64,000 nt of DNA from an uncultured Anaerolinea sp. (GTDB lineage: Bacteria > Chloroflexota > Anaerolineae > JAAEKA01), in NCBI GenBank assembly GCA_964626845.1, contig CAZVGR010000005.1, positions 36,557 through 100,556 on the forward strand, given 5' to 3'. This document shows, piece by piece, positions 26,501 to 52,034 of this stretch. A program made the position numbers and the translations under genes. Positions within the stretch are counted from its first letter, which is position 1. Every line of letters starts with the position of its first letter. The notes below the pieces were generated by a model, which ran no database searches, was not told the DNA's origin, and saw only the letters and a program-made list of their open reading frames with translations.

Positions 26501-28982
26501 GGCTGTTGGGGACATAGCTGGTATTGGCCGGGATGACGTCGGTCAGCACGGTATTAGTCGCGACCTCGTTGCCCAGGTTGCCATAGCGCAGGCGATAGAG
26601 CATCAGCTCGCCAGGCAGCGCGGGAATGGTGGTAGGAAAGGCGTTCTTTTGCACGTACACATCGGCCCCAGCCTGCGCGCTGAGCACCAGTGTCGATATG
26701 TTATCGGCCGGATCCAGGTCCAGTTCAGCGCTGGTGACCTCGGCCGTGTTGGTGATCAGCGTGACGCCAGGGGGCAGCGTGTCAGTCACCGTGGCGGTGT
26801 AGCGCAGATAGCCGGCTGCGCCCGGCGGCATATTGGGCAGGTTGAGGAGCAACTGCTTGATGGCGCTGTTGTAGGTCGCCGTCACCGGATAAGTAGTGCC
26901 TCCCACCACTAACACGGCAGAGCCGGGGACGTAGGTGGTGTTGCTGTCCAAAGTATCGGTGATGCGCACGCCGGTGGCGATGGCGCCGCCCCGGTTGTCG
27001 CCGATGTAGGTGTAGGTGATGGTGCTGCTGGCTGCAATCGGCACCGAGTCAGCCGTGGCGCTCTTGAAGATCGTCAGATCAGGACGGGCCAACACCTGGG
27101 TGGTGGCGATACGCTGGTTGTTGGTCAGGTCAGCTTCCAGGCTGGTGGTTGTGGCACGCGCCAGGTTGCTCAGCGTTGTAAGGCCATAGGGCATCGGGAT
27201 GGCGACGCGCGCGTTGAGGGTGAACACCTTTTGTTCGCCGATGGCCAGATTGCCCAAAGACCACCTCAGCGTGTTGGTGGGATTCTCAGTGGGCGTTATG
27301 CCGCTGGTGTCGCTGACATAGGCGGTGTAGCTGGGCAGCACGTCGGTCAGGATGACGCTGTTGGCGATCAGGCTGCCCTGGTTGCGCACGGTCAGGGTGT
27401 AGCTGATCAGCTCGTCAGGATAGACCAGGGTGCGGTTCGCGGTCTTCAGCACCAGCAGATCGGCCGTGGCCAGAGCCAGGTTCTGCGTGTTGTTGCACGC
27501 CGTCAGCGTTGGCGTTGCGGTCTGGGTCTGATAGTTCGTCTTGCTGGCGCGCACCGTGGCCGCCCCCGTGCGCAGCAGCTTGCTGGGCGTGCTGCTGAAG
27601 CTATACGCGCCGCCGCTGCCAGAAGTGGTCTCCCAGCGTGTGCCGACCGAATCGGTCAGAACCACAGTAGCGCCGACAATCGGCACACCCGTGCCCTGGT
27701 CGGTCACCACGCCGCTCAGCAGAGTTGGCGCCAGGGCCACGTTCTGGACATTGATGACCCCTTCAACCACGGCTGTGCTCAACGTCTTGGGGCAATAGCC
27801 AGTGGTGGAAACCTTCATCGACACCGGGCCGGCGTTGATGGGATTCTCAGTGCTGGCCGTGAACGAGTAGATGCCAGTCGTCTCGACAGCAACCGTGCTG
27901 TAGCTGTGCCTGGGCGTGCCAGTGTCAGTGATGACCACGGTGGCGCCGGGCAGAGGCGTGCTGCTGGTCTGGTCGGTCACCTGGCCGCGCAAAATGGTCG
28001 GCAGATTCTTGGCCGTAACCGTCAGGTTGCGGATCTCGTGATAGTTGGTGGAGCCGCCAGTGGAGGCCGCAAAGCCCATCTTCAGCGTTTCGGGGGGAGC
28101 ATTCGGCAGCAGATAAGACCCTATAATCGTCTGCAGCGCACCGGTGGCCCCGAACTGAATCTTGACCATGATGGTGTAGCTGCCCGTGCCAGTGGGCGTG
28201 ACGTCGATCTGGATCTTGCGATAGCCCGCGCCATTGATGTCAGGCCGGGTGGTCACGTTGGGCACGTCCAGCCGTTGTGAGGCTTGCACGCCCGTCAGGT
28301 AGACATAGCCGCTCATCCCGTTGCCCGGACCGCGCACCACCACGGCGCGCCCAACCCGGCCTGGCCCGCCGATGCGGCCCTCGGTCGGGTTGGAGAAGTT
28401 GCCGAATTCGTCGATGCCGATGCCCACATAACCGCTGGAGAGACCGTTGAAGCCAGAGCGCTGGGCATAACCCAACGAGCCGCCATAGCCGCCAATGTTG
28501 AAGCTTTGCTGGCCCGGTTCGCCCACATTGCCATCATAAAGAAAGAAGGTCAGGCCATCAGCGCCGGTGCCGCCCCAGCTCATATACTCAAAGGTGATCG
28601 CCAGGCCATTGGTCGACTCGAAAGACCGGTCGTAAATCGCATAGCCCTTTTTGTTGTACTCCTTGGTGGTCAGACGCAGCCAGCCATCGCCGTTGGGGTC
28701 CACGCCGGTCAGAGCCGTCAAGGAGGCATCGTCGCCGAGAATCCAGCCGTCGGCGAGGGTGCTATAACGAAACGACTCGGTGATCGGGAACGTGGCGGTC
28801 GGCGCCCGATGCTCGGCCGCGCTGACCGGCGGCTGGCCCTGCTGCAAGCTGCCGGCCGCAGCCGGCTGGCTGAAAGCCAGCGATAGCCATAAAGCGGCCA
28901 GCAAAGCGCCGCTGAGCAACAGACCGGTAGCCAGCAGAGCTACTGGCAGCGGGTGGCGAGAGTTGTGAGTCGTGTTCATCAT
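23505..28982 (-). CDS. Giant secreted/cell-surface protein: N-terminal L-type (legume-like) lectin domain, carboxypeptidase-regulatory-like and multiple DUF11/TIGR01451 repeats, PKD-like domain, two tandem ~95-aa C-terminal repeats, hydrophobic + basic C-terminal tail
   Basis: 1825 aa. Signal peptide. Lectin-like GWLRLTTKEYNKKGYAIY...GLAITFEY...ADGLTFFLYDG. DUF11 repeats (e.g. LLVLKTANRTLVYPDELISYTLTVRNQGSLIANSVILTDVLP). PKD-like FSMLPL...YTAVVTARDG. Tandem repeats WETASELDNRGFYLLRS / WQTASELDNQGFHLLRS. C-term PAWLPALALLAAAAGASRLARQRLRD. Confidence 0.85.
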   Translation of the reverse strand: MMNTTHNSRHPLPVALLATGLLLSGALLAALWLSLAFSQPAAAGSLQQGQPPVSAAEHRAPTATFPITESFRYSTLADGWILGDDASLTALTGVDPNGDGWLRLTTKEYNKKGYAIYDRSFESTNGLAITFEYMSWGGTGADGLTFFLYDGNVGEPGQQSFNIGGYGGSLGYAQRSGFNGLSSGYVGIGIDEFGNFSNPTEGRIGGPGRVGRAVVVRGPGNGMSGYVYLTGVQASQRLDVPNVTTRPDINGAGYRKIQIDVTPTGTGSYTIMVKIQFGATGALQTIIGSYLLPNAPPETLKMGFAASTGGSTNYHEIRNLTVTAKNLPTILRGQVTDQTSSTPLPGATVVITDTGTPRHSYSTVAVETTGIYSFTASTENPINAGPVSMKVSTTGYCPKTLSTAVVEGVINVQNVALAPTLLSGVVTDQGTGVPIVGATVVLTDSVGTRWETTSGSGGAYSFSSTPSKLLRTGAATVRASKTNYQTQTATPTLTACNNTQNLALATADLLVLKTANRTLVYPDELISYTLTVRNQGSLIANSVILTDVLPSYTAYVSDTSGITPTENPTNTLRWSLGNLAIGEQKVFTLNARVAIPMPYGLTTLSNLARATTTSLEADLTNNQRIATTQVLARPDLTIFKSATADSVPIAASSTITYTYIGDNRGGAIATGVRITDTLDSNTTYVPGSAVLVVGGTTYPVTATYNSAIKQLLLNLPNMPPGAAGYLRYTATVTDTLPPGVTLITNTAEVTSAELDLDPADNISTLVLSAQAGADVYVQKNAFPTTIPALPGELMLYRLRYGNLGNEVATNTVLTDVIPANTSYVPNSLKQNGSPVTDGDDEDQGQYISASRVISFSLGDLAAGASGVISFTVRITDVLPAGVEQISNTAYITSSVGDPVLADNQSTAVMAVNAQPDLVIRKSHSGTYFEANQTVRYTLTYSNTGSQVASGVLITDTLDPRMTYVESAPPGIHAAGVVTWTLGEVAVDGPHAIVLTATVDASASGELTINRVEIDDDGAGGPDPDPSTNSAEDIVRIARPILVLEKSVAGQSYVSGQITYTIVYRNDGPVAARSVVISDVIPANTTLVAGSISGGGSANGGKVTWNLGNLGVGATGQVSFAVTVGVGAGGASQSAPTASSESASGSLVLTSTVKSVSSPWCFSAGCSTILGYWGDANPVGPAGWTSNPQLDGPIFDDSLWETVKPPATTEPYWLPAATLGAEWVAVEPEPQIDRNYSFFRQYFYLPPNARGFQASLQTASDDIVDIYVNGRYMATQYGAGHAAATDVSSAVLAGVNLLALRLTGSTHGGHPEYGGKDHPALLYRLEASFSRSVPFVTAPSITLEDEEVTFSMLPLLRGKLPFSYTISFGDNQSASYTTNTSIEHTYSTPGVYTAVVTARDGLGSLATDSHTITVLASGSNLLTNRATTSYQNGYAISYSGESGAGSVLQPVINIPLKISGTPNPVKQGNLITHTIVITNNGPTAASPIVSDTLPEELGSVTWQCVASSGSSCTTPSGSNGFSQTLTLQPGGIITITVVGTVAPTAGPADLVMMAEIIPPSGYTNLAEGLDVYTTPIIVGPTAVTMVSFAAERKMDHILVEWETASELDNRGFYLLRSTSSQGPPQSLAYIPSQSTGSPAGFMYEYKDYDVISGVTYWYWLEALDTDGSTQSFGPVSALFQTPLAVTLEMLSAVSQPDRVQIQWQTASELDNQGFHLLRSDASQGGQHLLAFIPAQSPGASGGFFYAYDDLDVLPGETYWYWLEAVALDGSVQRFGPVSARFDAPTAVVWSSFHAAAQTGAPAWLPALALLAAAAGASRLARQRLRD

Positions 28983-33244: not shown

Positions 33245-33760
33245 TTAGGGCTGGCGCACCTCGGCCTCGACCGTCAACGTGGCGCCGCTGGCAAATTGGA
33301 GCGTCAGCGGGAACTTGTCGCCCACGTTCAGGTCGCGGGTCAGGCCGATCAGCATGACGTGCAGGCCGCCGGGCCGCAGCTCGACCTGGCCGCCGGCCGG
33401 CACCTCGATGCCGCCCTGGACCTCGGCCATGCGCATCACGTCCCCTTCCATCTTTGTCTCGTGGATCTCGATGGCGTTGGACACATCCGCCTGGGCAGCC
33501 ACCAGCCGGTCGGCCGCGGCGCTGCCGTTGGCCAGCACCATGTAGACCGCGCTGTTGGCGCCGCCGTGCTGCATCTGCTGGCTGTCGCCCTCCATCGGCA
33601 TGCTGCCCATCATCTTGGCCGGCCTGGCCCAGACGTTCTGGGCGGTGACGCCCTGGCTGGCCGCCGGCGCCGGCGGCGGCTGGGTGCAGGCTGTGGCCGC
33701 CAGCAACAGGACCATGATTGCTGCCAGCAGCAAGTAGACGCGTGCGTTGCGATACTGCAT
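33245..33760 (-). CDS. Periplasmic copper chaperone PCu(A)C-like lipoprotein (DUF461)
   Basis: Lipobox LLAATAC. Conserved H-x-M-rich copper site IEIHETKMEGDVMRMAE. Met/His-rich insert GSMPMEGDSQQMQHGG. Confidence 0.7.
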   Translation of the reverse strand: MQYRNARVYLLLAAIMVLLLAATACTQPPPAPAASQGVTAQNVWARPAKMMGSMPMEGDSQQMQHGGANSAVYMVLANGSAAADRLVAAQADVSNAIEIHETKMEGDVMRMAEVQGGIEVPAGGQVELRPGGLHVMLIGLTRDLNVGDKFPLTLQFASGATLTVEAEVRQP

Positions 33761-33772
33761 AGTGGTTCTCCT

Positions 33773-34318
33773 CTAGAAGTGCATGGATGTGCGGACAAAG
33801 GCCAGCGCCCCGTCCAAATCGACTATCTCACCGCCGAAACCAGCCTGAAAGCGCTGGGCGTCAGCCAGAGCCTCGAAGGCCAGCACGGTGGGCGTGCAAC
33901 AGATGGCAATCTCCGGCGCAGCCAGGTAGGCGGCGCTGCGTCCGTTGACGGTCCGGCCAAAGAGAAAATCGGTCACCAGGATGCTGGTAATCGCCTCGGC
34001 GCTGCGGGCCAGCGCCATCAAGCCGCAGTGGGGACAGCAAGCCAGGCGCTGGCTGCCATCGCTCCAGTGCAGGACGACCTGAGTGCGCGGGTTGAGCGAG
34101 CCATAACAGGCCAGGCAGCGCTCGCCGGCCGGCGCTGGCTCTGCGGGCACGGCGCCGCCGCGCACCTTGCGCAGCCGGCCGGCCTGGGCCAGTTGGTCCA
34201 GATCGCGGTGGATGGTCATGGTCGACACACCTAGCGTGTGAGCCAGATCGTCGATGCCAACCGCTCCCTGGTCGGCCAAGCGATCCAGAATATGGCGTTG
34301 ACGGTGGTCAGGGTTCAT
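33773..34318 (-). CDS. DeoR-type HTH transcriptional regulator fused to a C-terminal TRASH-like metal-binding domain (C-x2-C-x22-C-x3-C)
   Basis: Likely start ATG 34318 (MNPDHRQRHILDRLADQG...). The track's GTG at 34348 adds 10 aa. HTH GIDDLAHTLGVSTMTIHRDLDQL. TRASH-like CLACYGSLNPRTQVVLHWSDGSQRLACCPHCG. Confidence 0.65.
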   Translation of the reverse strand: MNPDHRQRHILDRLADQGAVGIDDLAHTLGVSTMTIHRDLDQLAQAGRLRKVRGGAVPAEPAPAGERCLACYGSLNPRTQVVLHWSDGSQRLACCPHCGLMALARSAEAITSILVTDFLFGRTVNGRSAAYLAAPEIAICCTPTVLAFEALADAQRFQAGFGGEIVDLDGALAFVRTSMHF

Positions 34319-34360
34319 GGGTTGTGCGATTCCATGTGATATCAACACAGATTTCGCAAC

Positions 34361-35281
34361 TTATAACACAAAGCGCTTCTGGGTGTCAAATAGCACGGCG
34401 TCCACGAAGGTCCAGAACGCGTTGGTGGCTGGTGAATGGGCGACCTGAGAGTCGTCGACCAGGTAGAGCCAGCGCTTCATAGCCACCCCCTCGATCTCCA
34501 CAATCTTGAGCTTGCCCACAGGCAGATGGCGCTGCACCGTGACCCTGGGCACAAAACTGAGCCCAATGTGCTCCTCCACCGCCATCAGGATCGCCTCTGA
34601 GTTGTCCAACACCAGCACAACTTCCATGCGGTCGAAATCGACTCCCACCTGGTCCAGCGTCTCGACCAGAGTCATTTGGGTGCCTGAGGACATCTCCCGC
34701 AGCACAAAGCGCTCCTGATAGAGCTCGCGCGGCGCGATCGAGGCGCGTGCGGCCCAGGGATGGTCGGCCGGCGCCACCAGGACGATCTCGTCCTCGAAGA
34801 AGCGGCGAAAATGCAGGCCCGCGCGCTGGACGCGATCGCTGGTCACAGCTACGTCGACGACGCCGGCGTGCAGCCAGTCCAGCACCTGGCTGCGCGCGCC
34901 CACCTTGACTGCCGCGCGCACCAAGGGATAGCGCTGGCGGTAGCGGGCCAAAATACCAGGCACCAGATACTTGCCCGACGACGTGGAACAGCCCAGGGTA
35001 AGATGGCCCGCCACCTCGCCGGCCAGCGCGTGCGCAGCCTCTTCTACCTGGCGGCAGTTGCGGATCAGGTCCTGCACCAGCGGCAGCAACACCTCGCCGG
35101 CCGGGCTGAGGCTGATACGACGGCCATTGCGCTCGAAAAGCGCCACGCCCAACGACTGCTCCAGCCCCTGGATGTGCTGGCTGACGGCCGGTTGGCTCAT
35201 GTGCAAGCGCTGGGCGGAGCGGGTGAAGTTCTCGGTTTCGGCTGCGATGGTGAAGATTTGCAGGCTTTCTAAATCAAGCAT
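34361..35281 (-). CDS. LysR-family transcriptional regulator
   Basis: N-terminal HTH LESLQIFTIAAETENFTRSAQRLHMSQPAVSQHIQGLEQSLGVALFER, plus C-terminal substrate-binding fold. Divergent from the rhodanese/cytochrome operon. Confidence 0.85.
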   Translation of the reverse strand: MLDLESLQIFTIAAETENFTRSAQRLHMSQPAVSQHIQGLEQSLGVALFERNGRRISLSPAGEVLLPLVQDLIRNCRQVEEAAHALAGEVAGHLTLGCSTSSGKYLVPGILARYRQRYPLVRAAVKVGARSQVLDWLHAGVVDVAVTSDRVQRAGLHFRRFFEDEIVLVAPADHPWAARASIAPRELYQERFVLREMSSGTQMTLVETLDQVGVDFDRMEVVLVLDNSEAILMAVEEHIGLSFVPRVTVQRHLPVGKLKIVEIEGVAMKRWLYLVDDSQVAHSPATNAFWTFVDAVLFDTQKRFVL

Positions 35282-35457: not shown

Positions 35458-35549
35458 ATAAAACATGATCTATATCATACGCTTTTATCAAAAATCCTGG
35501 TATGATTGGGCCGTTGCAGACTATACTCAAGGTTTCTCAGGAGGAGACT

Positions 35550-37556
35550 ATGTCTCGTTTGCGTGTTCTACCAATCCTATCGATCCTGCTGATCCTGGCG
35601 CTGCTGGTTGCAGGCTGCGGCCAGCAAGCCACGCCAGAGCCGACGCCCGTCCCGCCGACAGCTACCCCCGTGCCGCCGACGGCCACGCCGGTCCCGCCCA
35701 CGGCCACCCCTGTGCCGCCCACGGCTACGCCGGTGCCGCCAACACCCACGCCTGTACCGCCCACGCCAACCCCCGAACCGGAACCAGAGTCGGGCGTGTT
35801 GGATGATGCCATGGCCTTCTTTGGCGCTGGCGTGAAGTTGATCTCGGCTGACGCCCTCTACGAGAACCTCAACGACGGCGACGCCAGCAACGATCCCTTC
35901 ATCATCTCATTGCGCTCGGCCGAACATGACGCCGTAGGCCAGATCCCAGGCGCCTACAACATCAGCGTCAAGGAGCTGATGTCACCCGAGGTGCTGGCCA
36001 CCCTGCCCACCGACCGGCAGATCGTCGTCTACTGCTACACCGGCCAGAACTCAGCCCAGGCCGTGACAGCGCTGAACATGGCCGGCTTCGACGCAGCCAG
36101 CCTCACCTATGGCATGAGCGGCTGGACCACCGATCCGGCGGTCTATGTCAACCGCTTCAACGCAGAAACGACCCCGCGCCAGTTCGCAACCTTCACCGAC
36201 ATGCCGGAATGGAGCGACGAGACCTTCGCGCTGGCCACGCCATTGGCCGAGACCAGCGCCGAGGCCGCCTACGCCTACCTGAGCGCCAACGGCGCCAAGA
36301 TGATCGCGGCCGATGCGGTGTACGAGAACCTCAACGACGGCGACGCCAGCAACGACCCCTTCATCATCTCGGTGCGGGCCCAGGAAGACTACGCCAAGGG
36401 ACACCTGCCTGGCGCGCTGTGGACGACGCCCAAGGACCTGTTCACCCCTGAGATGCTGGCCAAGCTGCCCACCGACCGCCAGATCCTGGTCTACTGCTAC
36501 ACCGGCCAGAACTCCGGCTTCGTGGTGGCGGGTCTGAACATGCTGGGCTACGATGCCATCAGCCTGACCCACGGCATGAGCGGCTGGACCGACGATCCGG
36601 ATGTCTTCGTTCGCCGCTTCAACGCCGAGACGACGCCGCGCAACTTCCCCACCGAGGCTGGCGCCGTGCGCTCGCTGGCTGCCGGCTCGGACGGCGACCT
36701 GGCCACGGCCGCAGATGCTTACTTCAGCGGCGGCCCGAAGACTATCACCGCCGACGCGCTGTTCGAGATCCTCAACGACGGCGACGACAGCAACGACCCG
36801 ACGATCATCTCGGTGCGCAAGGCTGAGGATTTCGCTAAGGGCCACCTCCCTGGCGCGATCAACCTGACCCACGCCCAGCTCTTCACGCCCGATGTGCTGG
36901 CGACGATCCCGCAGGACAAACCGGTGGTGGTCTACTGCTACACCGGCCAGACGGCCAGCCAGGCAGTCTCGGTGCTGAACATGCTGGGCTACGACGCCCG
37001 CAACCTGGTCTTCGGCATGAGCGGCTGGACGACAGACCCTGAGGTCTACGTGACCCGCTTCGACCCCACCAAGGCCAACGACTTCCGAACGACCACGGAA
37101 GGCTTTGAGGCTGAGGGCGAGTACGACCTGCCCGAGCCGCTGGCGGCCACCGTGCTGGATGCAGCAGCGGTCTACTTCGGTGCAGGGCTGAAGACAATCC
37201 AGGCGCCGGCGTTGTACGAAAATCTGAACGACGGCGACGAGAGCAACGATCCCTACATCATCTCGGTGCGTTCGGCAGAGCACTACGCACTGGGCCATTT
37301 GCCAGGCGCAGTCTGGTACGACGCCAAGGCGCTGTTCACGCCAGACAGCCTGAGCACCCTGCCCAACGACCGCCCCATTGTGGTCTACTGCTATACCGGC
37401 CAGACCGCCAGCCAGGTGACTTCGGTGCTCAATCTGTTGGGCTACGATGCCAGCAACCTGGTGTTTGGTATGGGCAACTGGACCAACGATCCTGCGGTCT
37501 ACGTCAATCGCTTCAACCCGGAGACGACCCCGCGCGACTTTCCGGTTGAGAAATAG
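35550..37556 (+). CDS. Lipoprotein with four tandem rhodanese (sulfurtransferase) domains, each retaining the catalytic Cys (CYTGQ)
   Basis: Start MSRLRVLPILSILLILALLVAGC with strong RBS AGGAGG (the track ORF starts 48 nt earlier). PT-rich linker (TATPVPP x4). Four repeats ending ...VVYCYTGQNSAQ / LVYCYTGQNSGF / VVYCYTGQTASQ / VVYCYTGQTASQ. Confidence 0.85.
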   Translation: MSRLRVLPILSILLILALLVAGCGQQATPEPTPVPPTATPVPPTATPVPPTATPVPPTATPVPPTPTPVPPTPTPEPEPESGVLDDAMAFFGAGVKLISADALYENLNDGDASNDPFIISLRSAEHDAVGQIPGAYNISVKELMSPEVLATLPTDRQIVVYCYTGQNSAQAVTALNMAGFDAASLTYGMSGWTTDPAVYVNRFNAETTPRQFATFTDMPEWSDETFALATPLAETSAEAAYAYLSANGAKMIAADAVYENLNDGDASNDPFIISVRAQEDYAKGHLPGALWTTPKDLFTPEMLAKLPTDRQILVYCYTGQNSGFVVAGLNMLGYDAISLTHGMSGWTDDPDVFVRRFNAETTPRNFPTEAGAVRSLAAGSDGDLATAADAYFSGGPKTITADALFEILNDGDDSNDPTIISVRKAEDFAKGHLPGAINLTHAQLFTPDVLATIPQDKPVVVYCYTGQTASQAVSVLNMLGYDARNLVFGMSGWTTDPEVYVTRFDPTKANDFRTTTEGFEAEGEYDLPEPLAATVLDAAAVYFGAGLKTIQAPALYENLNDGDESNDPYIISVRSAEHYALGHLPGAVWYDAKALFTPDSLSTLPNDRPIVVYCYTGQTASQVTSVLNLLGYDASNLVFGMGNWTNDPAVYVNRFNPETTPRDFPVEK

Positions 37557-37681
37557 TCGATCTTCCCCTGCTGGTCAGCGCTGCCAAGGCGCTGACCAGG
37601 CGCACACGTGGGTGACTCTGCCTGCCTCACCAGCCAATGGTGAGGCAGGCAAGTCCCTTTTTTGGAAAGGAGCCCCCTGAA

Positions 37682-38035
37682 ATGCAGATAAAGGCGAAAC
37701 GACGCTGGCTGTGGGGGTTGGCGGCCATCGCTGTGGTGCTGATTGGCGTCGCCATTTTCCAGCCGGCCTTTGGCGGCGAGCAAGCGGCCCTCCCTGCGGT
37801 GGATGCCGTGGCGGCGCTGCCTGCGGTCGATCTGGTCCAGGCCGAGCCTGCCCCGGCCGAAGTTCAGCCGGCTGAACCATCGTCGTCCGTGGAACTAAGC
37901 GATCACGAGGCGCCGGTTGCGCAGACGCCGTCGTCCGACAACTGCATCGCCTGCCACACCAACCAGGCCCTGCTCCAGCAACTGGCCGTCGAGCCAGAAA
38001 AGGTCAAGTCGGAGCTGGCCGGCGGCGAGGGCTGA
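37682..38035 (+). CDS. Membrane-anchored monoheme c-type cytochrome (possibly the N-terminal part of the following decaheme gene, see findings)
   Basis: RBS GGAAAGGAG. MQIKAKRRWLWGLAAIAVVLIGVAIF (TM/signal anchor), CIACH. In the same frame as the next ORF, separated by a single TGA. Confidence 0.6.
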   Translation: MQIKAKRRWLWGLAAIAVVLIGVAIFQPAFGGEQAALPAVDAVAALPAVDLVQAEPAPAEVQPAEPSSSVELSDHEAPVAQTPSSDNCIACHTNQALLQQLAVEPEKVKSELAGGEG

Positions 38036-38044
38036 GCTGGCGAG

Positions 38045-39151
38045 TTGCCTCCGTTGGAGGCATGGCAAAAGGTCCTGGTGAGCGAAAAGTTCCTGACGGA
38101 CGACGTACACAGCAAGCCTGGCTGCATCGCCTGTCACGGCGGCACGCCTGGCGTGGTCGACAAGGAACAGGCCCATACCGGGATGTACAAGCTGGCAGCA
38201 GCGAACCCAGACCGCGCTTGCGGCGGCTGCCACGTGGCCGTCGTCGACCAGGCGCAGACCAGCTCGCATCGCCTGCTGCCCGGCTATCTGACCGTCATGT
38301 CGGAGCGCGGCGCAGACTTCACGATGCCAGAAACGGTGCGGGCCTACACCACCCATTGCACCAAGTGCCACGCGACCTGCGGCGACTGCCACATCAGCCG
38401 GCCCCAGGCGCTGGACGGCGGCCTGATCGATGGACACGTGGTCAAGCGAGTGGCCTCGGTGTTCACTACCTGCGGCGGCTGTCATAGCGCGCGCATCGCC
38501 GACGAATACAGGGGCGCCCATGAGGGCATCCCGGCTGATGTCCACTGGCAAAAGGCAGGTATGCCCTGCACCCGCTGCCACACCATGGAGGAGTTCCACG
38601 AGGGCCAACACGGCACGCGCTACGACTCCGAACCCAGCGTAGACTGCATCGACTGCCACCAGGAAGATGTGCAACTGGGCGGCGACAACTTGCAGCACAC
38701 CATCCACACCAACACTGTGCAGTGCCACGTTTGCCACTCAGCCGGCGAGTACAAGTCCTGCTTCACCTGCCACACCGGCGAGGACGACAAGGGCATTCCC
38801 TACTACACCACCGAGCCATCGCAGATGACCTTCAAAATCGGCCGCAACCCGATCCAGAGCGAGAGCCGGCCCTGGAACTACGTGCTGCTGCGCCATGCGC
38901 CCACCAATCCCGACCTGTGGGCCTTCTACGGCGACGACCTGCTGCCGACCTTCGACAACCTGCCCACATGGAAGGCGACGACGCCGCATAACATCCAGAA
39001 GATCACGCCACAAAACGCTACCTGCAATAGTTGCCACGGCCAGGAGGAGTTGTTCCTCACCGAAGCCGATGTGGCGCCCGACCTGCTGGAGGCCAATCGT
39101 CGTGTGATCGTGACCAGGATCCCGCGTACGCTGCCGGAGGTCGAGCCATGA
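38045..39151 (+). CDS. Decaheme c-type cytochrome (10 CXXCH), no own signal peptide
   Basis: TTG-start ORF. CIACH, CGGCH, CTKCH, CGDCH, CGGCH, CTRCH, CIDCH, CHVCH, CFTCH, CNSCH. Stop overlaps the next start (ATGA). Confidence 0.7.
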   Translation: MPPLEAWQKVLVSEKFLTDDVHSKPGCIACHGGTPGVVDKEQAHTGMYKLAAANPDRACGGCHVAVVDQAQTSSHRLLPGYLTVMSERGADFTMPETVRAYTTHCTKCHATCGDCHISRPQALDGGLIDGHVVKRVASVFTTCGGCHSARIADEYRGAHEGIPADVHWQKAGMPCTRCHTMEEFHEGQHGTRYDSEPSVDCIDCHQEDVQLGGDNLQHTIHTNTVQCHVCHSAGEYKSCFTCHTGEDDKGIPYYTTEPSQMTFKIGRNPIQSESRPWNYVLLRHAPTNPDLWAFYGDDLLPTFDNLPTWKATTPHNIQKITPQNATCNSCHGQEELFLTEADVAPDLLEANRRVIVTRIPRTLPEVEP

Positions 39152-40284
39152 CCACACGCACCTACGCGGCTGGGATGATCGTTGTCCTGGCAACCCTCGC
39201 TCTGGCCGGCCTGCTCTTTGCGGCGCAGCCAGCCAAAGCTCAGGAGACTCCCCCGCTCCCTGGCAGCGCCAATCCGGACAACGTCGCCTGCCTTGCCTGC
39301 CACCGGCAGGAGGGGCTGCACCTGGTGTTCCCATCGGGCGAAGCGCTGCCAGTCACTATGGACGCCACAGAGCTGCTCGGATCGGTCCACGCTACGTTGG
39401 CCTGCCAGGACTGTCACACCGACATCGCCGGCTACCCCCACGGCGCGCCGCCAGCCAACGACCATCGCGATCTGCAGATCCACTACAGCCATAGCTGCGC
39501 CAACTGCCATGACCAGCAGGCCATGCAAGAGGTCGACAGCATCCATGCCCAGCTTCAGGCCTCCGGCATGAGAGAAGCCGCCGTCTGCGCCGACTGCCAC
39601 GGCAGCCACAACATCCAGCCGATCGACCGGGACAAGCACCCCGAGGTGTCGCCTACGGCCTCGGCCGAGATCTGTGCGCAGTGCCACAGCGGCATTTATA
39701 ACCAGTTCGCCGACAGCGTGCATGGCGAGGCGTTGATCTCCGGCAACCCCGACGTGCCGACCTGCATCACCTGCCACCCCGCGCACACCGCTACCGATCC
39801 GCGCACGCTGGCCTTCCGCCTGCAATCGCCGGAGATGTGCGGCGAGTGCCACGCCGACCAGGCGCTGATGGCCAAGTACGGCATCTCCACCGAGGTGTTC
39901 GACACCTACGTGGCCGATTTTCACGGCACCACAGTAATGCTGTTCGAGAAGACCCATCCTGGCCAGCCCACCAACAAGGCCGTCTGCATCGACTGCCACG
40001 GCGTGCATGACATCGCCCCGGCTACGCGCGACAGCGAGCTGATCCAGGCCAACATCCTGCCCCGCTGCCAGGAATGCCATCCCGACGCGTCGATCAACTT
40101 CGCGGCCAGTTGGCTGGGCCACTACGCCCCTAACTTCGAGACTGCGCCCTTAGTGACCACAGTGACCTGGTTCTACCGCATCCTGATCCCGCTGGTGATC
40201 GGGTTCTTTGTGGTCTACGTCGGCCTCGACGCCTATCGCCACATCATGGACCGGCGCGAGCGCCGCAAGGAGGTGAAAGCATGA
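39148..40284 (+). CDS. Nonaheme c-type cytochrome with N-terminal signal peptide and C-terminal TM anchor
   Basis: Start MTTRTYAAGMIVVLATLALAGLLFAAQPAKAQE. CLACH, CQDCH, CANCH, CADCH, CAQCH, CITCH, CGECH, CIDCH, CQECH. C-term helix WFYRILIPLVIGFFVVYVGL. ATGA overlap with both neighbours. Confidence 0.85.
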   Translation: MTTRTYAAGMIVVLATLALAGLLFAAQPAKAQETPPLPGSANPDNVACLACHRQEGLHLVFPSGEALPVTMDATELLGSVHATLACQDCHTDIAGYPHGAPPANDHRDLQIHYSHSCANCHDQQAMQEVDSIHAQLQASGMREAAVCADCHGSHNIQPIDRDKHPEVSPTASAEICAQCHSGIYNQFADSVHGEALISGNPDVPTCITCHPAHTATDPRTLAFRLQSPEMCGECHADQALMAKYGISTEVFDTYVADFHGTTVMLFEKTHPGQPTNKAVCIDCHGVHDIAPATRDSELIQANILPRCQECHPDASINFAASWLGHYAPNFETAPLVTTVTWFYRILIPLVIGFFVVYVGLDAYRHIMDRRERRKEVKA

Positions 40285-41378
40285 GCGAAAGCACGCAACG
40301 CTACCTGCGTTTCCTGGTCAGCGACCGGGTGCTGCACCTGCTGCTGCTGATCTCCTTCACGGCGCTGGCCATCACTGGCCTGGTACAGAAGTATGCCGAT
40401 TTTGGCATCTCAGTAACGCTGATCCGGGCTATGGGCGGCATCGAACAGACGCGCGTCTTCCACCACACCTTCGCGGTGGTGCTGATCCTGACCAGCATCG
40501 CCCATGCGGTGCAGGTCGGCTACCGCGTCTACGTGCAGCGCAAATCGATGAGCATGCTGCCAACCCTGCGCGACGTAACCGACTTCGTGGCTGCGGTCAA
40601 ATACAACGCCGGGCTGAGCAAGCAACGGCCTCACTTCCCCCGCTTTAACTTCATGGAGAAGGTCGAGTACTGGGCGGTGGTATGGGGCACGGTGCTGATG
40701 ACCATCACCGGCTACGTGCTGTGGAATCCGGTGTTGATCACCCAGTACCTGCCGGGCGAAGTGGTGCCAGCGGCCAAGATCGCTCACGGCCTGGAGGCGG
40801 TGCTGGCGGTGTTGTCGATCTTGATCTGGCACGCCTACTACGTCCATGTTAAGGTCTTCAACAAGAGCATGTTCACCGGCTATCTGACCGAAGAGGAGAT
40901 GGAGGAAGAACATCCCGCCGAGTTGGAGAAGATTCGCCACGGCAAAGTCTGGCATCCGCCGGCTCCAGAAGTACGCTATAGCCGCATCAAGCTCTATGCG
41001 CCTTTGGCAACGCTCTTTGTGTTGGTATCGGTGCTGGGCACCTGGCGCTGGCTGACGGCCGAAACGACAGCCATCACCACCGTGCCGCGCGCTGTGGTGG
41101 AACAGGCGGCCTATCAACCGGTGCTGCCCACCCCGCGCACGGTCAGGCTGGAGGCGACACCCGCGCCCACGCCGCTCAGCGTGCTGGCTGTCAGCGACCT
41201 GGCCAGCCAGCCGCCGGCCGAGGCGCCGTTGATCCCCCACGCCATCGGCGGGGAGCGCTCGCAGTGCCTGGTTTGTCACGACGTCTACAGCATGATCAAG
41301 CCAGCGCCGCGCGACCATGCCGGCTTGACTGAAGATACCTGCCAGACCTGCCACAGCCCGCAAGGAGAGACGCCATGA
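40281..41378 (+). CDS. Dihaem cytochrome b (FdnI/HydC/HyaC-type, 4-5 TM, quinone-reactive) fused to a C-terminal dihaem c domain (CbcL-like)
   Basis: TM helices with conserved His (HLLLLISF, FHHTFAVVLIL, IAHGLEAVLAVLSILIWHAYYVH). C-term CLVCH and CQTCH. ATGA overlap with both neighbours. Confidence 0.8.
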   Translation: MSESTQRYLRFLVSDRVLHLLLLISFTALAITGLVQKYADFGISVTLIRAMGGIEQTRVFHHTFAVVLILTSIAHAVQVGYRVYVQRKSMSMLPTLRDVTDFVAAVKYNAGLSKQRPHFPRFNFMEKVEYWAVVWGTVLMTITGYVLWNPVLITQYLPGEVVPAAKIAHGLEAVLAVLSILIWHAYYVHVKVFNKSMFTGYLTEEEMEEEHPAELEKIRHGKVWHPPAPEVRYSRIKLYAPLATLFVLVSVLGTWRWLTAETTAITTVPRAVVEQAAYQPVLPTPRTVRLEATPAPTPLSVLAVSDLASQPPAEAPLIPHAIGGERSQCLVCHDVYSMIKPAPRDHAGLTEDTCQTCHSPQGETP

Positions 41379-43054
41379 CTCCCCATGCACGCCCCCATCT
41401 GGCTGGCTGGGCCGTCCTGGCGTTCTTCTGCCTGCTGGCCCTGGCTCTAGGGCCGCAGCCTGCCCACGCCCAGCCGCCTGAGCCGCACCAATTCATGCAG
41501 GACTACAAAGGCCCGGTCACTTGCCGGATCTGTCACGGCGACGTAGCCGACCAGGTGATCCACAGCGTCCACTACACGTGGGAGCAGAAGATGGATCACT
41601 ATAGCCCGGTGGCCGGCAGCATTGCCCGCATCAACTGGCTGGGGATGCTCAACGAGACCCTCAACATCCCCGGCGGCTGCGGCCGCTGCCACGTGGGCAG
41701 CGGCGCGTTGCCTGTGTCCCCTGACCAGGCGACCACCGCCGACAAGAACGGCATCGACTGCCTGATCTGCCACTCGCCAGTTTACGACACCAGCCTGCGC
41801 TTCCCGGTGCAGGACGAAAACGGCAACTGGACGTTGACCCAGGATCGCAACGTGCTGACCGCGCGCCAGGCGCAGCGCCCCACCACCGAGAACTGCCTGT
41901 TCTGCCACCAAAACGTGGGCGGCGGGCCGATGCTCAAGCGCGGGGTGGACTTCGCGCCCATCGAGGACAAGCACGGCGAAGACAGCAAGGCCGATGTCCA
42001 CGCCAGCGCCGGCCTGACCTGCGTTGACTGCCACGCCTCGCAGGACCACAAGATCATGGGCTTTGCGCCCGACATCTGGAGCCGCGACCTGCCCGACCAG
42101 CGCCTGACCTGCGATAGCTGCCACACCTCCGCGCCGCACGCCGATCCGCTGCTCAACGTGCAGCACGCGCGGCTGGATTGCCGTACCTGTCACGTGGAGG
42201 GAACCGGCGGGCTGGTCAGCCGCGACTGGACTGCGCCGCCAGTCTACGATCCGATCACCGAGCTGTATGCGCCGGTGGACGACCTGCGCGCGCCCAACTC
42301 GGTGCAGCCAGTCTATATGTGGCACAACGGCCAGCCGGCGCTGCCAGGCGAACCCTGGCCCGGCAGCCGCTCCGACCTGACGTCGCGCATCCAACCCTTC
42401 AAGCTGTTCCAGGCCACTGCGCCGGTGGACGCCAGCAGCAGCGAACCAATCCCGCTCAAGCTGGGCATCTTCTACACGCAGGGCGACCTGGAGCAGGCCA
42501 TCCGGGTTGGCGCGGCCGAGTCGGGCATGGCCTACAGCGGGTCATGGCAGACCGGCCAGCTCGACGCGCCTTTGCAGATCAGCCACGGCGTGGTGGGAGC
42601 GCAGTATGCCCGCCAGTGCCAGGACTGCCACGTGCCGGACGGCATCATCGACTTCGCCAACATGGGCTACACGCCGCAGGAAGTGGCCGTGTTGAGCACC
42701 ATCAGCTCAGAAAGCGCCGGTCAGCGCCAGCCCTTGCAGATGTCGGTAGTGATCCCGGCCGCGCAGCCGCTGCCCACACCAGTGCTGCTGTCAGGCAACC
42801 TGGAGGCTGCGCGCGGCTTCGGCGTTCAGATCCCGTGGAACCCGTTCCTGGTACTGCTGGCCTCGATCGCCATCGTCGCCGGCGGCGGTTACTGGCTCTA
42901 CCGCCAGAAGCCGGTCGCTGCGCCGCCGCCGGTGCAGACCGCAACGGCAGGAGCACCCGCAACGCCAACACCCGAGGCTACCGCGGCGCAGGACACGCCA
43001 GATGAGGCTGCGGCGGAGCAATCCGCAGTTGAACGATCTACCGGAAGCGACTAA
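41375..43054 (+). CDS. Octaheme c-type cytochrome with signal peptide and C-terminal TM anchor + Pro/Ala/Thr-rich tail
   Basis: Signal AVLAFFCLLALALGPQPAHA. CRICH, CGRCH, CLICH, CLFCH, CVDCH, CDSCH, CRTCH, CQDCH. TM LVLLASIAIVAGGGYWLY. Confidence 0.85.
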   Translation: MTPHARPHLAGWAVLAFFCLLALALGPQPAHAQPPEPHQFMQDYKGPVTCRICHGDVADQVIHSVHYTWEQKMDHYSPVAGSIARINWLGMLNETLNIPGGCGRCHVGSGALPVSPDQATTADKNGIDCLICHSPVYDTSLRFPVQDENGNWTLTQDRNVLTARQAQRPTTENCLFCHQNVGGGPMLKRGVDFAPIEDKHGEDSKADVHASAGLTCVDCHASQDHKIMGFAPDIWSRDLPDQRLTCDSCHTSAPHADPLLNVQHARLDCRTCHVEGTGGLVSRDWTAPPVYDPITELYAPVDDLRAPNSVQPVYMWHNGQPALPGEPWPGSRSDLTSRIQPFKLFQATAPVDASSSEPIPLKLGIFYTQGDLEQAIRVGAAESGMAYSGSWQTGQLDAPLQISHGVVGAQYARQCQDCHVPDGIIDFANMGYTPQEVAVLSTISSESAGQRQPLQMSVVIPAAQPLPTPVLLSGNLEAARGFGVQIPWNPFLVLLASIAIVAGGGYWLYRQKPVAAPPPVQTATAGAPATPTPEATAAQDTPDEAAAEQSAVERSTGSD

Positions 43055-49439: not shown

Positions 49440-52034
49440 TCAAGACAGGTCGCCGTTGACAGTCGACGGATCTGGGGTAAACAGGCTGGGCTGGGCGGCG
49501 CCAGACTGGGCCTTCTCCGGCCAGACGGCGCCGATATGCTCGTAAGCCAGCCGCGTGGCGGCGCGGCCGCGCGGCGTGCGGTCCAGGAAGCCCAGTTGCA
49601 GCAGATACGGCTCGACCACGTCCATGATGGTGCCCGAGTCCTCGCTCAGCGCCGCAGCGATGGTCTCCAGCCCCACCGGCCCGCCGTCGAACTTCTCCAC
49701 CAGCAGGCGCAGCACCTTGCGGTCCAGGTCGTCCAGGCCCAGCGCGTCGATCTCCATCAGGCGCAGGGCCTGGTCGGCTGTCTCGGCCGTGATCACGCCG
49801 TCGCCGCGCACCTGGACGTAGTCCCGCACGCGGCGCAGCAGGCGCAGGGCCACACGCGGCGTGCCGCGGGCCCGGCGGGCGATCTCGCTGGCGCCGTCGT
49901 CGCTGATGGTCACCTGCAAGAGCGCGGCCGCGCGGCGCACGATCTCCTCCAGCGCGGCCTGCTCGTAGAAGTCGAAGCGGTAAATGGCGCCGAAGCGCGA
50001 GCGCAGCGGCGCAGTCAGCAGGGCCAGCCGCGTCGTCGCGCCGATCACCGTGAAGCGGGGCAGCTTGAGGCGGATCGAGCGCGCGCTGGGGCCTTTGCCG
50101 ATGACGATATCCAGCGCGAAGTCCTCCATGGCCGGGTAGAGGATCTCCTCCACGGCCCGGCCCAGGCGGTGGACCTCGTCGATGAAGAGGATGTCGCCCT
50201 TGTGCAGGTTAGTCAGGATCGCCGCCAGATCGCCGGCCCGCTCGATAGCCGGCCCGGCCGTCGTCTTCATGGCTACGCCCATCTCGTTGGCCAGGACGTG
50301 GGCTAGCGTCGTGTTGTGATTGAAGAATCCGTTGGCTACAAATGAATGGCTACCAGGAACGACGAAATCATAGGTCGCTGCGAAGCCTTCCTCAATCTGC
50401 TTCACGCGATCCCAATAAATAGCCGGATCTGTCAACGAACATAGCGTTTGGTACTCCGGAGTTTCCTGAATCCAGGGCGGCAGAAGTTCGAGGTAGCGTT
50501 GAATCTGTTGTCGCGTTGGAGTTCGATCGTTGCGACTCGCATGGCTAAACGCCTTATGAGTCGAATGTGGGTGAGGCCCTGATAGATGAAGCAAGGAGCG
50601 TAGACTAGAGTTCGAACATGGAACGAGTTCACTCCGACTCCAGCCGCCTGTTCGCATCCTTAGGCCCTCTGCTCGGTCCCGCTTACGGCCTAGACGAAAA
50701 CTGACAATATCGTGATAGCGCTCGGCGTCGATTCCACCAACGAAGAGTGTCCAGTAGTCTACGGCTTTGATTCTCTTCCGGTTACGGCTAGCAATAATGC
50801 CAAGGTTGGCTAGAAGCAACTGCACTTGTTGGGCGAGTTGTTTTGAGCGCGTACCATATTCTACATAACCTTCTGGCCAGACATTTCCATCAGCATCAAA
50901 CAAGCCTTGCAAGAATCCGATAGCTGTCGAGCGCTCTCCTGATAACACGCTGGCAGGCACCACCTTGTTGGACGCGAGTTCAGCCTTCATCCCTAAGGCA
51001 AGCATGAGATGCCCGATTGTCTGACTGAAACGCAACTGCGGCGCCCTGTCGCCGTACTGTCGTATTTCAGGAGCTTGGCCGAATAGTCTCTGTGCAATCC
51101 GCTGCAATTCAACCTGTATCTCAGGCTCGCTGCAGGTGATAACAAAGGCGGGGGAATTCTGTCCGCGTTCGAAGTGACCATCTCCAACTAGCATTCCCAT
51201 CACGTAAGCCAAGTCCGCGTCAAGATCGATTACGCGAGCTCTGTTGTCGACAAGTTCAGTGGTAAAGCGCCACGGCGAAGCTTCCACGTCAACTGATCGC
51301 CCATCAGTTAGCGAGAGACCCAATCGTTTGGCTGCTACTTCCGGCGTTGGATTCTTGCTGGCTGCACCCATGTAAGCGTGTCTCAGTTCAATGGCTGCGG
51401 GAGGTCTTCCCAGACCATTGACCAAATCTTCGTAGATGTGGCGGATCCTGCAATCCGTCCAAGCGCGTCGCATGCTAGATGCGTCTGGCTGCCAAGATGC
51501 AGACTGCGGTTGACCCCACTGGTTCATGCCGCGACCGATAGCCACATAATCTTCAGTGGAAATCTCTTCAAGGCGTTTCCATTGGGGACCGCTTGGCGTG
51601 GCAACCAACAAGGCATGGTTTGGCGTGCCTTCGATTTCGAAGCCCGCTTTGGTGATGATGCGACGTGTCGTTCCGTGACCACTAGCATAGACGTATGAAG
51701 TCGTTTCGATGCCGTTGAGACCATAGACCAAGGTGCGACAAGGCACGTAAGTATCTGGTGCGAGGGTGTCTGGAATGAACGAATCGAAGGACTTCCATCC
51801 CTGCTCGGTCAGAATGAGCGAGGTGGCAGTGATGCACTTGCCCAGTCCGGGCGGACCATACAAGAGCACATGATCCAGCGACTCGCTGCGTTGCTGGGCG
51901 GCCTGTAAGAGGATCTCCAGGTTGTCGCGCAGGCGGTCCTGGCCGATCATCTCGGCCAGGCGCTTGGGGCGCAGGGCGGCGTCCAGCGCGGCTTCTTCGG
52001 GGCGTTTGCGGGCGGAAACGGTGCGGTCGTCCAT
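49440..52034 (-). CDS. ruvB: Holliday-junction branch-migration ATPase RuvB interrupted by a ~508-aa intein in the Walker-A P-loop
   Basis: N-extein ...[11 protein letters not shown]-extein [13 protein letters not shown]...FIDEVHRL...[14 protein letters not shown] (RuvB sensor/winged-helix regions). 864 aa total vs ~340 for typical RuvB. Confidence 0.9.
50313..51836 (-). other. Intein with LAGLIDADG homing-endonuclease domain inserted between GLGK and TT of the RuvB P-loop
   Basis: Cys1 ([13 protein letters not shown]), C-terminal ...VANGFFNHN followed by +1 Thr. LAGLIDADG motifs [14 protein letters not shown] and [14 protein letters not shown]. Visibly lower GC (~50%) than the flanking extein DNA. 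Confidence 0.8.

Follow-up and report, generated by a model that had tools for sequence, protein, structure and literature searches.

An in-frame TGA as a probable, conserved selenocysteine codon in the gene for an eleven-haem cytochrome from Chloroflexota

The DNA analysed (hereafter the window) comprises 64,000 nucleotides (nt) from an uncultured Anaerolinea sp. (contig CAZVGR010000005.1, positions 36,557 to 100,556, forward strand), and all positions below are numbered from its first letter. At 37682-39151 (+) the window carries two open reading frames (ORFs) for c-type haem proteins that lie in the same frame and are separated by one TGA codon and 9 nt. From the features of this stretch and from its relatives in other genomes we conclude, with a probability of roughly 0.85, that the two ORFs are one gene for a single selenocysteine (Sec, U)-containing protein with 11 haems, predicted here from sequence.

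The gene at 37682-39151 and its reading frame

The ATG at 37682 sits 8 nt past an AAGGAG sequence and opens an ORF of 117 codons that is closed by TGA 38033-38035. The product of this ORF consists, in order, of a positively charged N-terminus, a hydrophobic stretch, a Pro/Ala/Glu-rich linker and one CXXCH motif (C88-I-A-C91-H92). The TGA is followed by GCT GGC GAG (9 nt) and then by TTG 38045, and the same frame remains open until TGA 39149-39151. An initial annotation of the window had described ORF 37682-38035 (anchor and one CXXCH) and ORF 38045-39151 (ten CXXCH, no leader) as being in frame with only the TGA and 9 nt between them, and this was confirmed. The features of the stretch are as follows.

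37682-39151 (+): read-through gene of 489 residues with 11 CXXCH and a proposed U at residue 118, based on the frame and on homologues.
37682-37780 (+): N-terminal signal/anchor, MQIKAKRRWLWGLAAIAVVLIGVAIFQPAFGG, in which MQIKAKRR is followed by an 18-residue hydrophobic stretch; export is predicted from sequence.
37943-37957 (+): haem-1 motif C88-I-A-C91-H92, the sole CXXCH 5' of the TGA.
38024-38041 (+): G-E-G-U-A-G loop, with TGA 38033-38035 as the proposed selenocysteine codon, based on conservation and on Cys in homologues.
38046-38062 (+): hairpin UGCCUCC-GUU-GGAGGCA, resembling a selenocysteine insertion sequence (SECIS), with a perfect 7-bp stem and loop GUU; it overlaps the L-P-P-L-E-A codons.
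38045-39151 (+): ten-haem body with exactly 10 CXXCH and no hydrophobic N-terminus, held in public databases as a separate leaderless hypothetical protein of ~365 residues (aa).

Attachment of haem to CXXCH requires export of the unfolded chain. A signal/anchor on one polypeptide with the CXXCH motifs is provided by the read-through product only, the downstream ORF alone being without it. The proposed U118 is located between haem motifs 1 and 2, 26 residues past the haem-1 His and 30 residues before the haem-2 Cys. Pfam gave only generic multihaem domains on the read-through protein, and no NCBIfam model passed its cutoff.

Conservation of the stop site and of the downstream hairpin

The read-through protein, with U written as C, was searched against 5.8 billion proteins and the best 120 matches were analysed. 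Fragments accounted for 105 of the 120; these start 0-6 residues before a conserved Trp that lies 10 residues after the TGA position, and the ~365-aa fragment form is seen in relatives with identities as low as about 45%. Full-length, continuous homologues with an N-terminal signal and the haem-1 motif made up the remaining 15 matches. Seven of the 15 (P0049, P0057, P0060, P0082, P0086, P0105 and P0117) have Cys at the TGA column, and a TGC codon at the site was confirmed in the Cys-type loci L083 and L085.

One genome per species of the Genome Taxonomy Database (GTDB) was scanned, which confirmed at least 590 relatives, and the best 80 loci were taken for DNA comparison. These loci cover Anaerolineae, Caldilineae, Ardenticatenales, Thermoflexales, Dehalococcoidia, the isolate Thermanaerothrix solaris, Acidimicrobiia and other Actinomycetota. 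An in-frame stop was present at the same residue in 78 of the 80 loci, and the frame extended 5' from it through a CXXCH to a signal peptide, a lipoprotein signal or a rhodanese domain. Of the two exceptions, L071 is a partial locus and L075 carries a sense codon at this residue. Together with the window gene the 78 loci gave 79 TGA-type genes. The in-frame stop was TGA in 79 of 79 genes, whereas the terminal stops of the same genes (n = 76) were TAG in 27, TGA in 25 and TAA in 24. Since the site is never occupied by TAA or TAG in genomes that use all three stops freely, the in-frame stop is not a termination signal under neutral drift.

The site has the motif G(79)-E(75)-G(79)-stop-G/A(78)-G(77)-x-L/V-P-P-L/V-E-x-W(79), with counts among the 79 genes in brackets; in Thermanaerothrix solaris the stretch across it reads ...SEGVG-U-GGDVAPLEPWEK... 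A haem-1 CXXCH was found 24-27 residues ahead of U in every TGA-type gene (79/79), and in none of them (0/79) does the second ORF product have a signal peptide. At their N-termini the homologues have an anchor like that of the window protein or else a signal of the lipoprotein type, in which the hydrophobic stretch is followed by a Cys. The number of CXXCH motifs is 11 in 59 of the 79 relatives. The initial annotation had argued for one exported 11-haem protein in place of a leaderless decahaem protein; the read-through frame, the 15 continuous homologues and the 79 leaderless second ORFs support this view.

The initial annotation had seen no convincing SECIS-like hairpin after the TGA. This did not hold, as the hairpin at 38046-38062 is present, conserved and covarying. 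It starts 10 nt past the UGA and its apical loop, which is GUU or GGU across the relatives, starts 17 nt past the UGA. The hairpin region was aligned as 42 nt counted from the UGA in 76 sequences; the alignment was gap-free and the distance from UGA to hairpin showed no length variation. In the stem, which joins columns 14-20 to columns 24-30 in 7 bp, 94.2% of the cells form standard pairs; sliding the partner by 1-3 columns lowered this to 44-57%. Compensatory changes were present in five of the seven stem pairs, and the observed values were reached by none of 500 column shuffles. Some of the compensations alter the amino acids on both arms, LPPLEA being replaced by VAPLEP in Thermanaerothrix and relatives and by VPPLEG in a Caldilineaceae group.

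Codon choice across the hairpin was strongly skewed relative to the background in the rest of these genes. Pro at +5 after U is encoded by CCT in 72 of 74 sequences (background 10%), Pro at +6 by CCG in 72 of 72 (43%), Leu at +7 by TTG in 61 of 66 (15%) and Ala at +9 by GCA in 48 of 53 (11%), with free variation of the codons at +1, +2 and +11 to +13. G21, which is invariant, is both the first base of the loop and the third base of the second Pro codon. In three non-TGA homologues that were checked (two Cys-type genes with TGC and one non-Cys gene) the hairpin was absent.

The minimal SECIS element of Escherichia coli is a stem-loop of 17 nt about 11 nt after the UGA. Like the canonical bacterial SECIS (E. 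coli fdhF type; bSECISearch consensus), the present hairpin is a stem-loop inside the coding sequence directly 3' of the UGA, with a small apical loop that has G then U and lies at 16-37 nt from the UGA; it differs in its very short, perfect 7-bp stem, its 3-nt loop and the lack of a bulged U. The bacterial SECIS criteria quoted in PMC13188914 ask for a 3-9-nt loop with a G within its first two positions, a 4-16-bp stem, a distance of 16-37 nt from the UGA and a minimum free energy of -7.5 kcal/mol or lower. The GUU/GGU loop, the 7-bp stem and the 17-nt spacing lie inside this bacterial model on every count, and the hairpin alone, as in locus L013, folds at about -11.5 kcal/mol. No Rfam family matched it. 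The 38046-38062 hairpin is a strong candidate for a bacterial SECIS, for which binding of SelB is predicted.

In public annotation (NCBI, JGI, ENA and Logan-derived) these genes are represented by a leaderless 'hypothetical protein' of ~365 aa or by a mislabelled sulfurtransferase. What these genes encode appears to be a widespread selenoprotein family of novel architecture that has gone unrecognised and is misannotated across public databases. Literature searches found no description of the present family, their coverage being incomplete and an earlier description possible. A 2026 review table of prokaryotic selenoproteins lists as cytochrome-related entries only ExtKL, the GSU2204 family and some proteins of the octahaem tetrathionate reductase (OTR) family; the 11-haem family is absent from this table and has no NCBIfam model.

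As a separate observation on the annotation, the JGI label 'thiosulfate/3-mercaptopyruvate sulfurtransferase' is attached to many truncated cytochrome fragments (P0001, P0002, P0007, P0017 and others). Its probable origin is annotation transfer from those relatives whose cytochrome is fused to a rhodanese domain.

Decoding of the UGA and alternative explanations

The site is most likely one of conserved recoding, specifically of selenocysteine insertion, rather than of damage, and the recoding mechanism itself would be a standard one. The ribosome would decode UGA 38033-38035 as selenocysteine, the hairpin at 38046-38062 recruiting SelB with Sec-tRNA(Sec) at the standard distance. The resulting product of 489 residues would be exported through its N-terminal signal or anchor and loaded with 11 c-type haems on the external side of the membrane, with Sec118 in the glycine-rich GEGUAG loop. 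This form of recoding survives the comparison because TGA is exclusive at the site, Cys occupies it in full-length homologues and a covarying hairpin stands at SECIS distance.

Three options had been left by the initial annotation, namely sequencing error, recent pseudogenisation and recoding, and only the last of them stood, as selenocysteine insertion. One sequence with a single nonsense codon in an otherwise intact gene would look like an artefact or a decaying gene. Contigs from many independent runs were found via an exact match to the protein of the downstream cytochrome b, and six of these Logan contigs reached the TGA site; the 1470 nt including the TGA were 100% identical in all six of these independent run assemblies, so that sequencing or assembly error is excluded. 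Pseudogenisation is excluded because the same in-frame TGA recurs across species, in 78 species-level genomes at ~43-75% protein identity and with obvious purifying selection on the downstream 370 codons; the chance of either form of artefact or decay is negligible. If UGA were reassigned to a sense codon, for example for Gly (code 25), the loop would read GEGGAG here and, in the majority of relatives, GEGGGG, and the residues that flank the site are indeed glycines. The initial annotation had, however, taken TGA for an ordinary stop elsewhere in the window, rightly so: the 35 likely window genes close with TGA in 19 cases (among them the cytochrome gene itself), with TAA in nine and with TAG in seven. 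TGA also makes up 25 of the 76 terminal stops in the relatives, and the sense-codon homologues show Cys, V, A, L, P or W at the column but never Gly. Reassignment was rejected on the terminal-stop counts in window and relatives, and its probability is close to nil.

Two readings that accept the TGA as a genuine feature of an intact gene have to be set beside selenocysteine insertion. The TGA could end a small anchored monohaem cytochrome, with the decahaem protein restarting at TTG, CTG or GTG by translational coupling and being exported in some other way. Gene callers in every public source do annotate a 117-aa and a 365-aa product, and Leu/Val codons at +4 and +7 offer potential starts in most loci. 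The second product nevertheless has no signal peptide in any of the 79 genes, while haem attachment needs export; the two parts always share a frame, and neither TAA nor TAG ever stands between them; 15 homologues have one unbroken ORF, with Cys at the site in seven; and the conserved RNA hairpin and the rare-codon constraint would play no role. Two separate proteins are on this evidence very improbable. The UGA could also be read through in a programmed way by a near-cognate tRNA (Trp, Cys or Arg), stimulated by the hairpin and giving short and long products. Stable hairpins behind a stop codon are known to be able to stimulate read-through in general, homologue P0108 has Trp at the site, and the machinery for Sec was not found in the window or the related loci. 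Against this stand the predominance of Cys among the sense residues at the column (seven of 15, the classic Sec/Cys pairing), the placing of the site in an invariant G-x-G-U-G/A-G loop, as would be expected of a functional residue, and the agreement of the hairpin with every bacterial SECIS constraint, including the invariant loop G. Read-through of this kind is accordingly very unlikely.

Several results count against the insertion of selenocysteine. The eight full-length homologues that lack Cys at the TGA column have V, A, L, P or W there (Trp in P0108), so that the site residue is dispensable in some lineages. The 71-nt region of the hairpin folds no better than shuffled sequences (z = -0.11); stability alone being unremarkable, the significance of the hairpin comes from the comparison with other loci only. 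Searches by tblastn with the E. coli proteins gave no match to selA, selB or selD either within the 64 kb of the window or across ~0.8 Mb of related loci, and ARAGORN and Rfam found no tRNA-Sec in the window or the fetched loci, only tRNA-Pro. In the AlphaFold model of the Cys-type homologue P0049 (mean predicted local distance difference test score 77) confidence is low, ~54, in the block with the Cys79 loop. Pfam scans of the remaining window showed no selenium-related genes. In favour of selenocysteine, Chloroflexi and Actinobacteria include Sec-decoding members (PMC1794560; PMC5736913), and Sec-decoding capacity of the present organism is assumed from its phylum.

With Sec118 as the residue encoded by the UGA, its placing relative to the haems can be considered. 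The family alignment contains ten conserved non-motif histidines for eleven haems. All its invariant Cys columns belong to CXXCH motifs, there is no other conserved Cys or Lys, and a CC pair at the site is found only in some Cys-type members. One haem is without an obvious distal ligand, because ten such histidines face eleven haems, and since Sec is the only other conserved redox residue, Sec118 is a candidate for this position. That it is the sixth (distal) ligand of one haem, giving a natural His/selenolate-ligated c-type haem, is nonetheless an unlikely arrangement; Sec may alternatively be placed beside an open haem. His/Cys haems occur in TsdA, SoxA, DsrJ and the Geobacter cytochrome MccSep. 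If Sec118 were a ligand, it would provide the selenium counterpart of these His/Cys haems, would accept sulfur or selenium straight from the rhodanese that is paired with it or fused to it, and would define a surface sulfur/selenium respiratory module in Chloroflexota and Actinomycetota. The body of the protein resembles octahaem tetrathionate reductase in fold, and Foldseek found no PDB match for the P0049 model.

Gene cluster, proposed function and known cytochromes

The gene lies in a co-directional cluster of five, which codes for a rhodanese lipoprotein, the putative selenoprotein, a multihaem cytochrome, a cytochrome b and an OTR-family cytochrome; the last four genes overlap by ATGA. 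The neighbours of the selenoprotein gene are as follows.

34361-35281 (-): divergent LysR-type regulator (Pfam HTH_1 and LysR_substrate), present near 31 loci and also beside Cys-type genes.
35502-37556 (+): lipoprotein with a Pro/Thr-rich linker and four rhodanese domains (PF00581, four stretches, E 4e-61) whose active-site loops all read CYTGQ.
39148-40284 (+): multihaem c-type cytochrome that has a membrane helix at its C-terminus; the start of its gene and the stop of the selenoprotein gene overlap (ATGA), and it is co-located in 16 fetched loci.
40281-41378 (+): membrane cytochrome b (FdnI/Ni-hydrogenase type) with two C-terminal CXXCH (PF01292; TIGR01583 below cutoff; synteny), the probable quinol-interacting subunit.
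41375-43054 (+): OTR-family octahaem cytochrome with a C-terminal membrane anchor (TIGR04315 163 bits, cutoff 375; phmmer E 2.4e-25 to 1sp3_A).

Further details were observed in these neighbours. The rhodanese lipoprotein has a lipobox LVAGCG and a linker of tandem PTATPVPP repeats (35590-35800, +), and Pro/Thr-rich linkers like this one also precede the haem-1 motif in many of the cytochrome relatives. A 14-bp GC-rich hairpin followed by CCCTTTT (37619-37651, +) is situated after the rhodanese stop at 37556 and ~30 nt ahead of ATG 37682; from its sequence it looks like an intrinsic terminator or attenuator inside the operon, and a second inverted repeat is present at about 37570-37600. The C-terminal extension of the cytochrome b makes it a fusion of b-type and c-type cytochromes, with ATGA overlaps to both neighbours. 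The OTR-family cytochrome has a Pro/Ala/Thr-rich tail. In its alignment to 1sp3_A the OTR segment GKKNSINNFC (between haem motifs 1 and 2) is opposite GSIARINWLG, the Lys and the Cys being unmatched; because these two residues are not conserved, the product of 41375-43054 may not itself be a tetrathionate reductase. At 33245-34348 (-), just upstream of the LysR regulator, a PCuAC copper-chaperone gene stands beside a gene for a DeoR-type helix-turn-helix (HTH) protein, the latter with a Cys-rich C-terminal half (CLAC...CCPHC...CC).

Enough upstream sequence was available in 60 TGA-type loci; a same-strand rhodanese gene lies at most 2.5 kb upstream of the cytochrome in 49 of these and forms an in-frame fusion with it in seven. 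The three non-TGA loci lack a rhodanese in that interval. The quinol module varies in relatives and consists either of cytochrome b with partners or of NrfC/NrfD. In the Cys-type loci L083 (8001-11814) and L085 (1153-4977) the cytochrome has 13 CXXCH and a C-terminal anchor and is followed by NrfC-like 4Fe-4S and NrfD-like membrane subunits; a LysR regulator lies upstream and an upstream rhodanese is absent. A second, inverted cytochrome-NrfC-NrfD module adjoins the first in L083.

Tentatively, by analogy with known systems, we infer for the protein the role, substrate and electron direction of a rhodanese-fed, Sec-dependent sulfane-sulfur/selenium reductase at the cell surface, because the rhodanese pairing parallels the logic of MccSep and ExtH in Geobacter. 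Sec118 would act as the catalytic nucleophile of a sulfane-sulfur or selenium oxidoreductase and would receive sulfur of the persulfide or polysulfide type, or selenium, from the lipoprotein with its four rhodanese domains. Electrons from the quinone pool would pass via the downstream cytochrome b and multihaem subunits to the haem chain, which would use them to reduce the Se-S bond so formed. Such a scheme would work like MccSep (ExtKL) with the rhodanese ExtH, though the present protein is not a member of the MccSep family. The 11 of 60 TGA-type loci without an upstream rhodanese, and the loci with NrfC/NrfD in place of the cytochrome b module, do not sit well with this proposal.

If the selenocysteine reading is true, re-annotation would be needed in hundreds of genomes, and respiratory selenium use would extend to Chloroflexota and Actinomycetota. 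The rhodanese pairing and fusions would then offer a testable handle on cell-surface sulfur/selenium handling in abundant, mostly uncultured bacteria, and the cultured carrier Thermanaerothrix solaris makes the prediction directly testable.

Elsewhere in the window, an 864-aa ORF for RuvB (49440-52034, -) contains an intein, with Intein_splicing and LAGLIDADG_3 inside the RuvB_N P-loop domain (Pfam). An uninterrupted run of sensory kinase genes (3145-23230, -) comprises seven ORFs with HisKA/HATPase, six with a receiver and six with PAS, and includes one seven-transmembrane sensor, one PocR sensor and a solute-binding protein gene at 8471-10021. An HTH regulator with a PocR domain is encoded at 1618-2409. 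A giant protein of 1825 aa (23505-28982, -) with six DUF11 repeats and lectin-like, PKD and CarboxypepD_reg domains is probably a cell-surface protein.

The 11-haem protein was compared with three groups of known cytochromes. The OTR of Shewanella oneidensis (PDB 1sp3) has 8 haems against 11 here, and its model TIGR04315 was not matched by the 11-haem protein at E < 0.01. The Cys of OTR lies 38 residues after the haem-1 His and 10 before the haem-2 Cys, whereas the corresponding distances of U are 26 and 30, and the Lys of OTR has no conserved counterpart in the 11-haem protein.

ExtN (NF040967), from a Geobacter operon for selenite/tellurite reduction, is the only model that runs along the whole ten-haem body, residues 127-462 matching model positions 20-349 (E 1.2e-11, 44 bits against a cutoff of 200 bits). 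The match leaves out the N-terminal module of haem 1 and Sec, and ExtN is not listed as a selenoprotein. ExtN, ExtKL and the rhodanese ExtH share one Geobacter locus, with extH and extKL in a single gene cluster.

MccSep/ExtKL (GSU2937-2936) of Geobacter sulfurreducens is a Sec-containing pentahaem polysulfide (and selenite) reductase (PDB 9wt8 and 9wt9; PMC13510729), and it was not until 2026, with this protein, that the biochemistry and structure of a Sec-bearing multihaem cytochrome were characterised (PMC13510729). Reference 58 of the same paper has a title on ExtH, a rhodanese-like lipoprotein from G. sulfurreducens. The 11-haem protein was rejected as a member of the MccSep family on the grounds of sequence, haem number and Sec position. 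Although 9wt8 and 9wt9 were in the PDB set searched, they were matched neither by the protein at E <= 1 nor by the family profile at E <= 10, and the MccSep/ExtKL model NF040886 gave no match to the protein. MccSep has 5 haems against 11 here. Its Sec is in a C-terminal Ig-like domain (DGUP), in contrast to the N-terminal GEGUGG loop between haem motifs 1 and 2, and its active-site haem is ligated by a strictly conserved non-motif Cys (C239), whereas the Sec-type members here have no second conserved Cys. The hosts also differ, being Desulfobacterota and Nitrospirota for MccSep and Chloroflexota and Actinomycetota for the present family. Both are extracytoplasmic multihaem c-type cytochromes with one Sec at an in-frame UGA (a proposed one here), both genes are split in two by annotation, both have a SECIS-like stem-loop after the UGA, and both have relatives of Sec-type and Cys-type. 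By analogy we propose that the chemistry would be as in MccSep, with Sec attacking a chalcogen-chalcogen bond and the haems reducing it.

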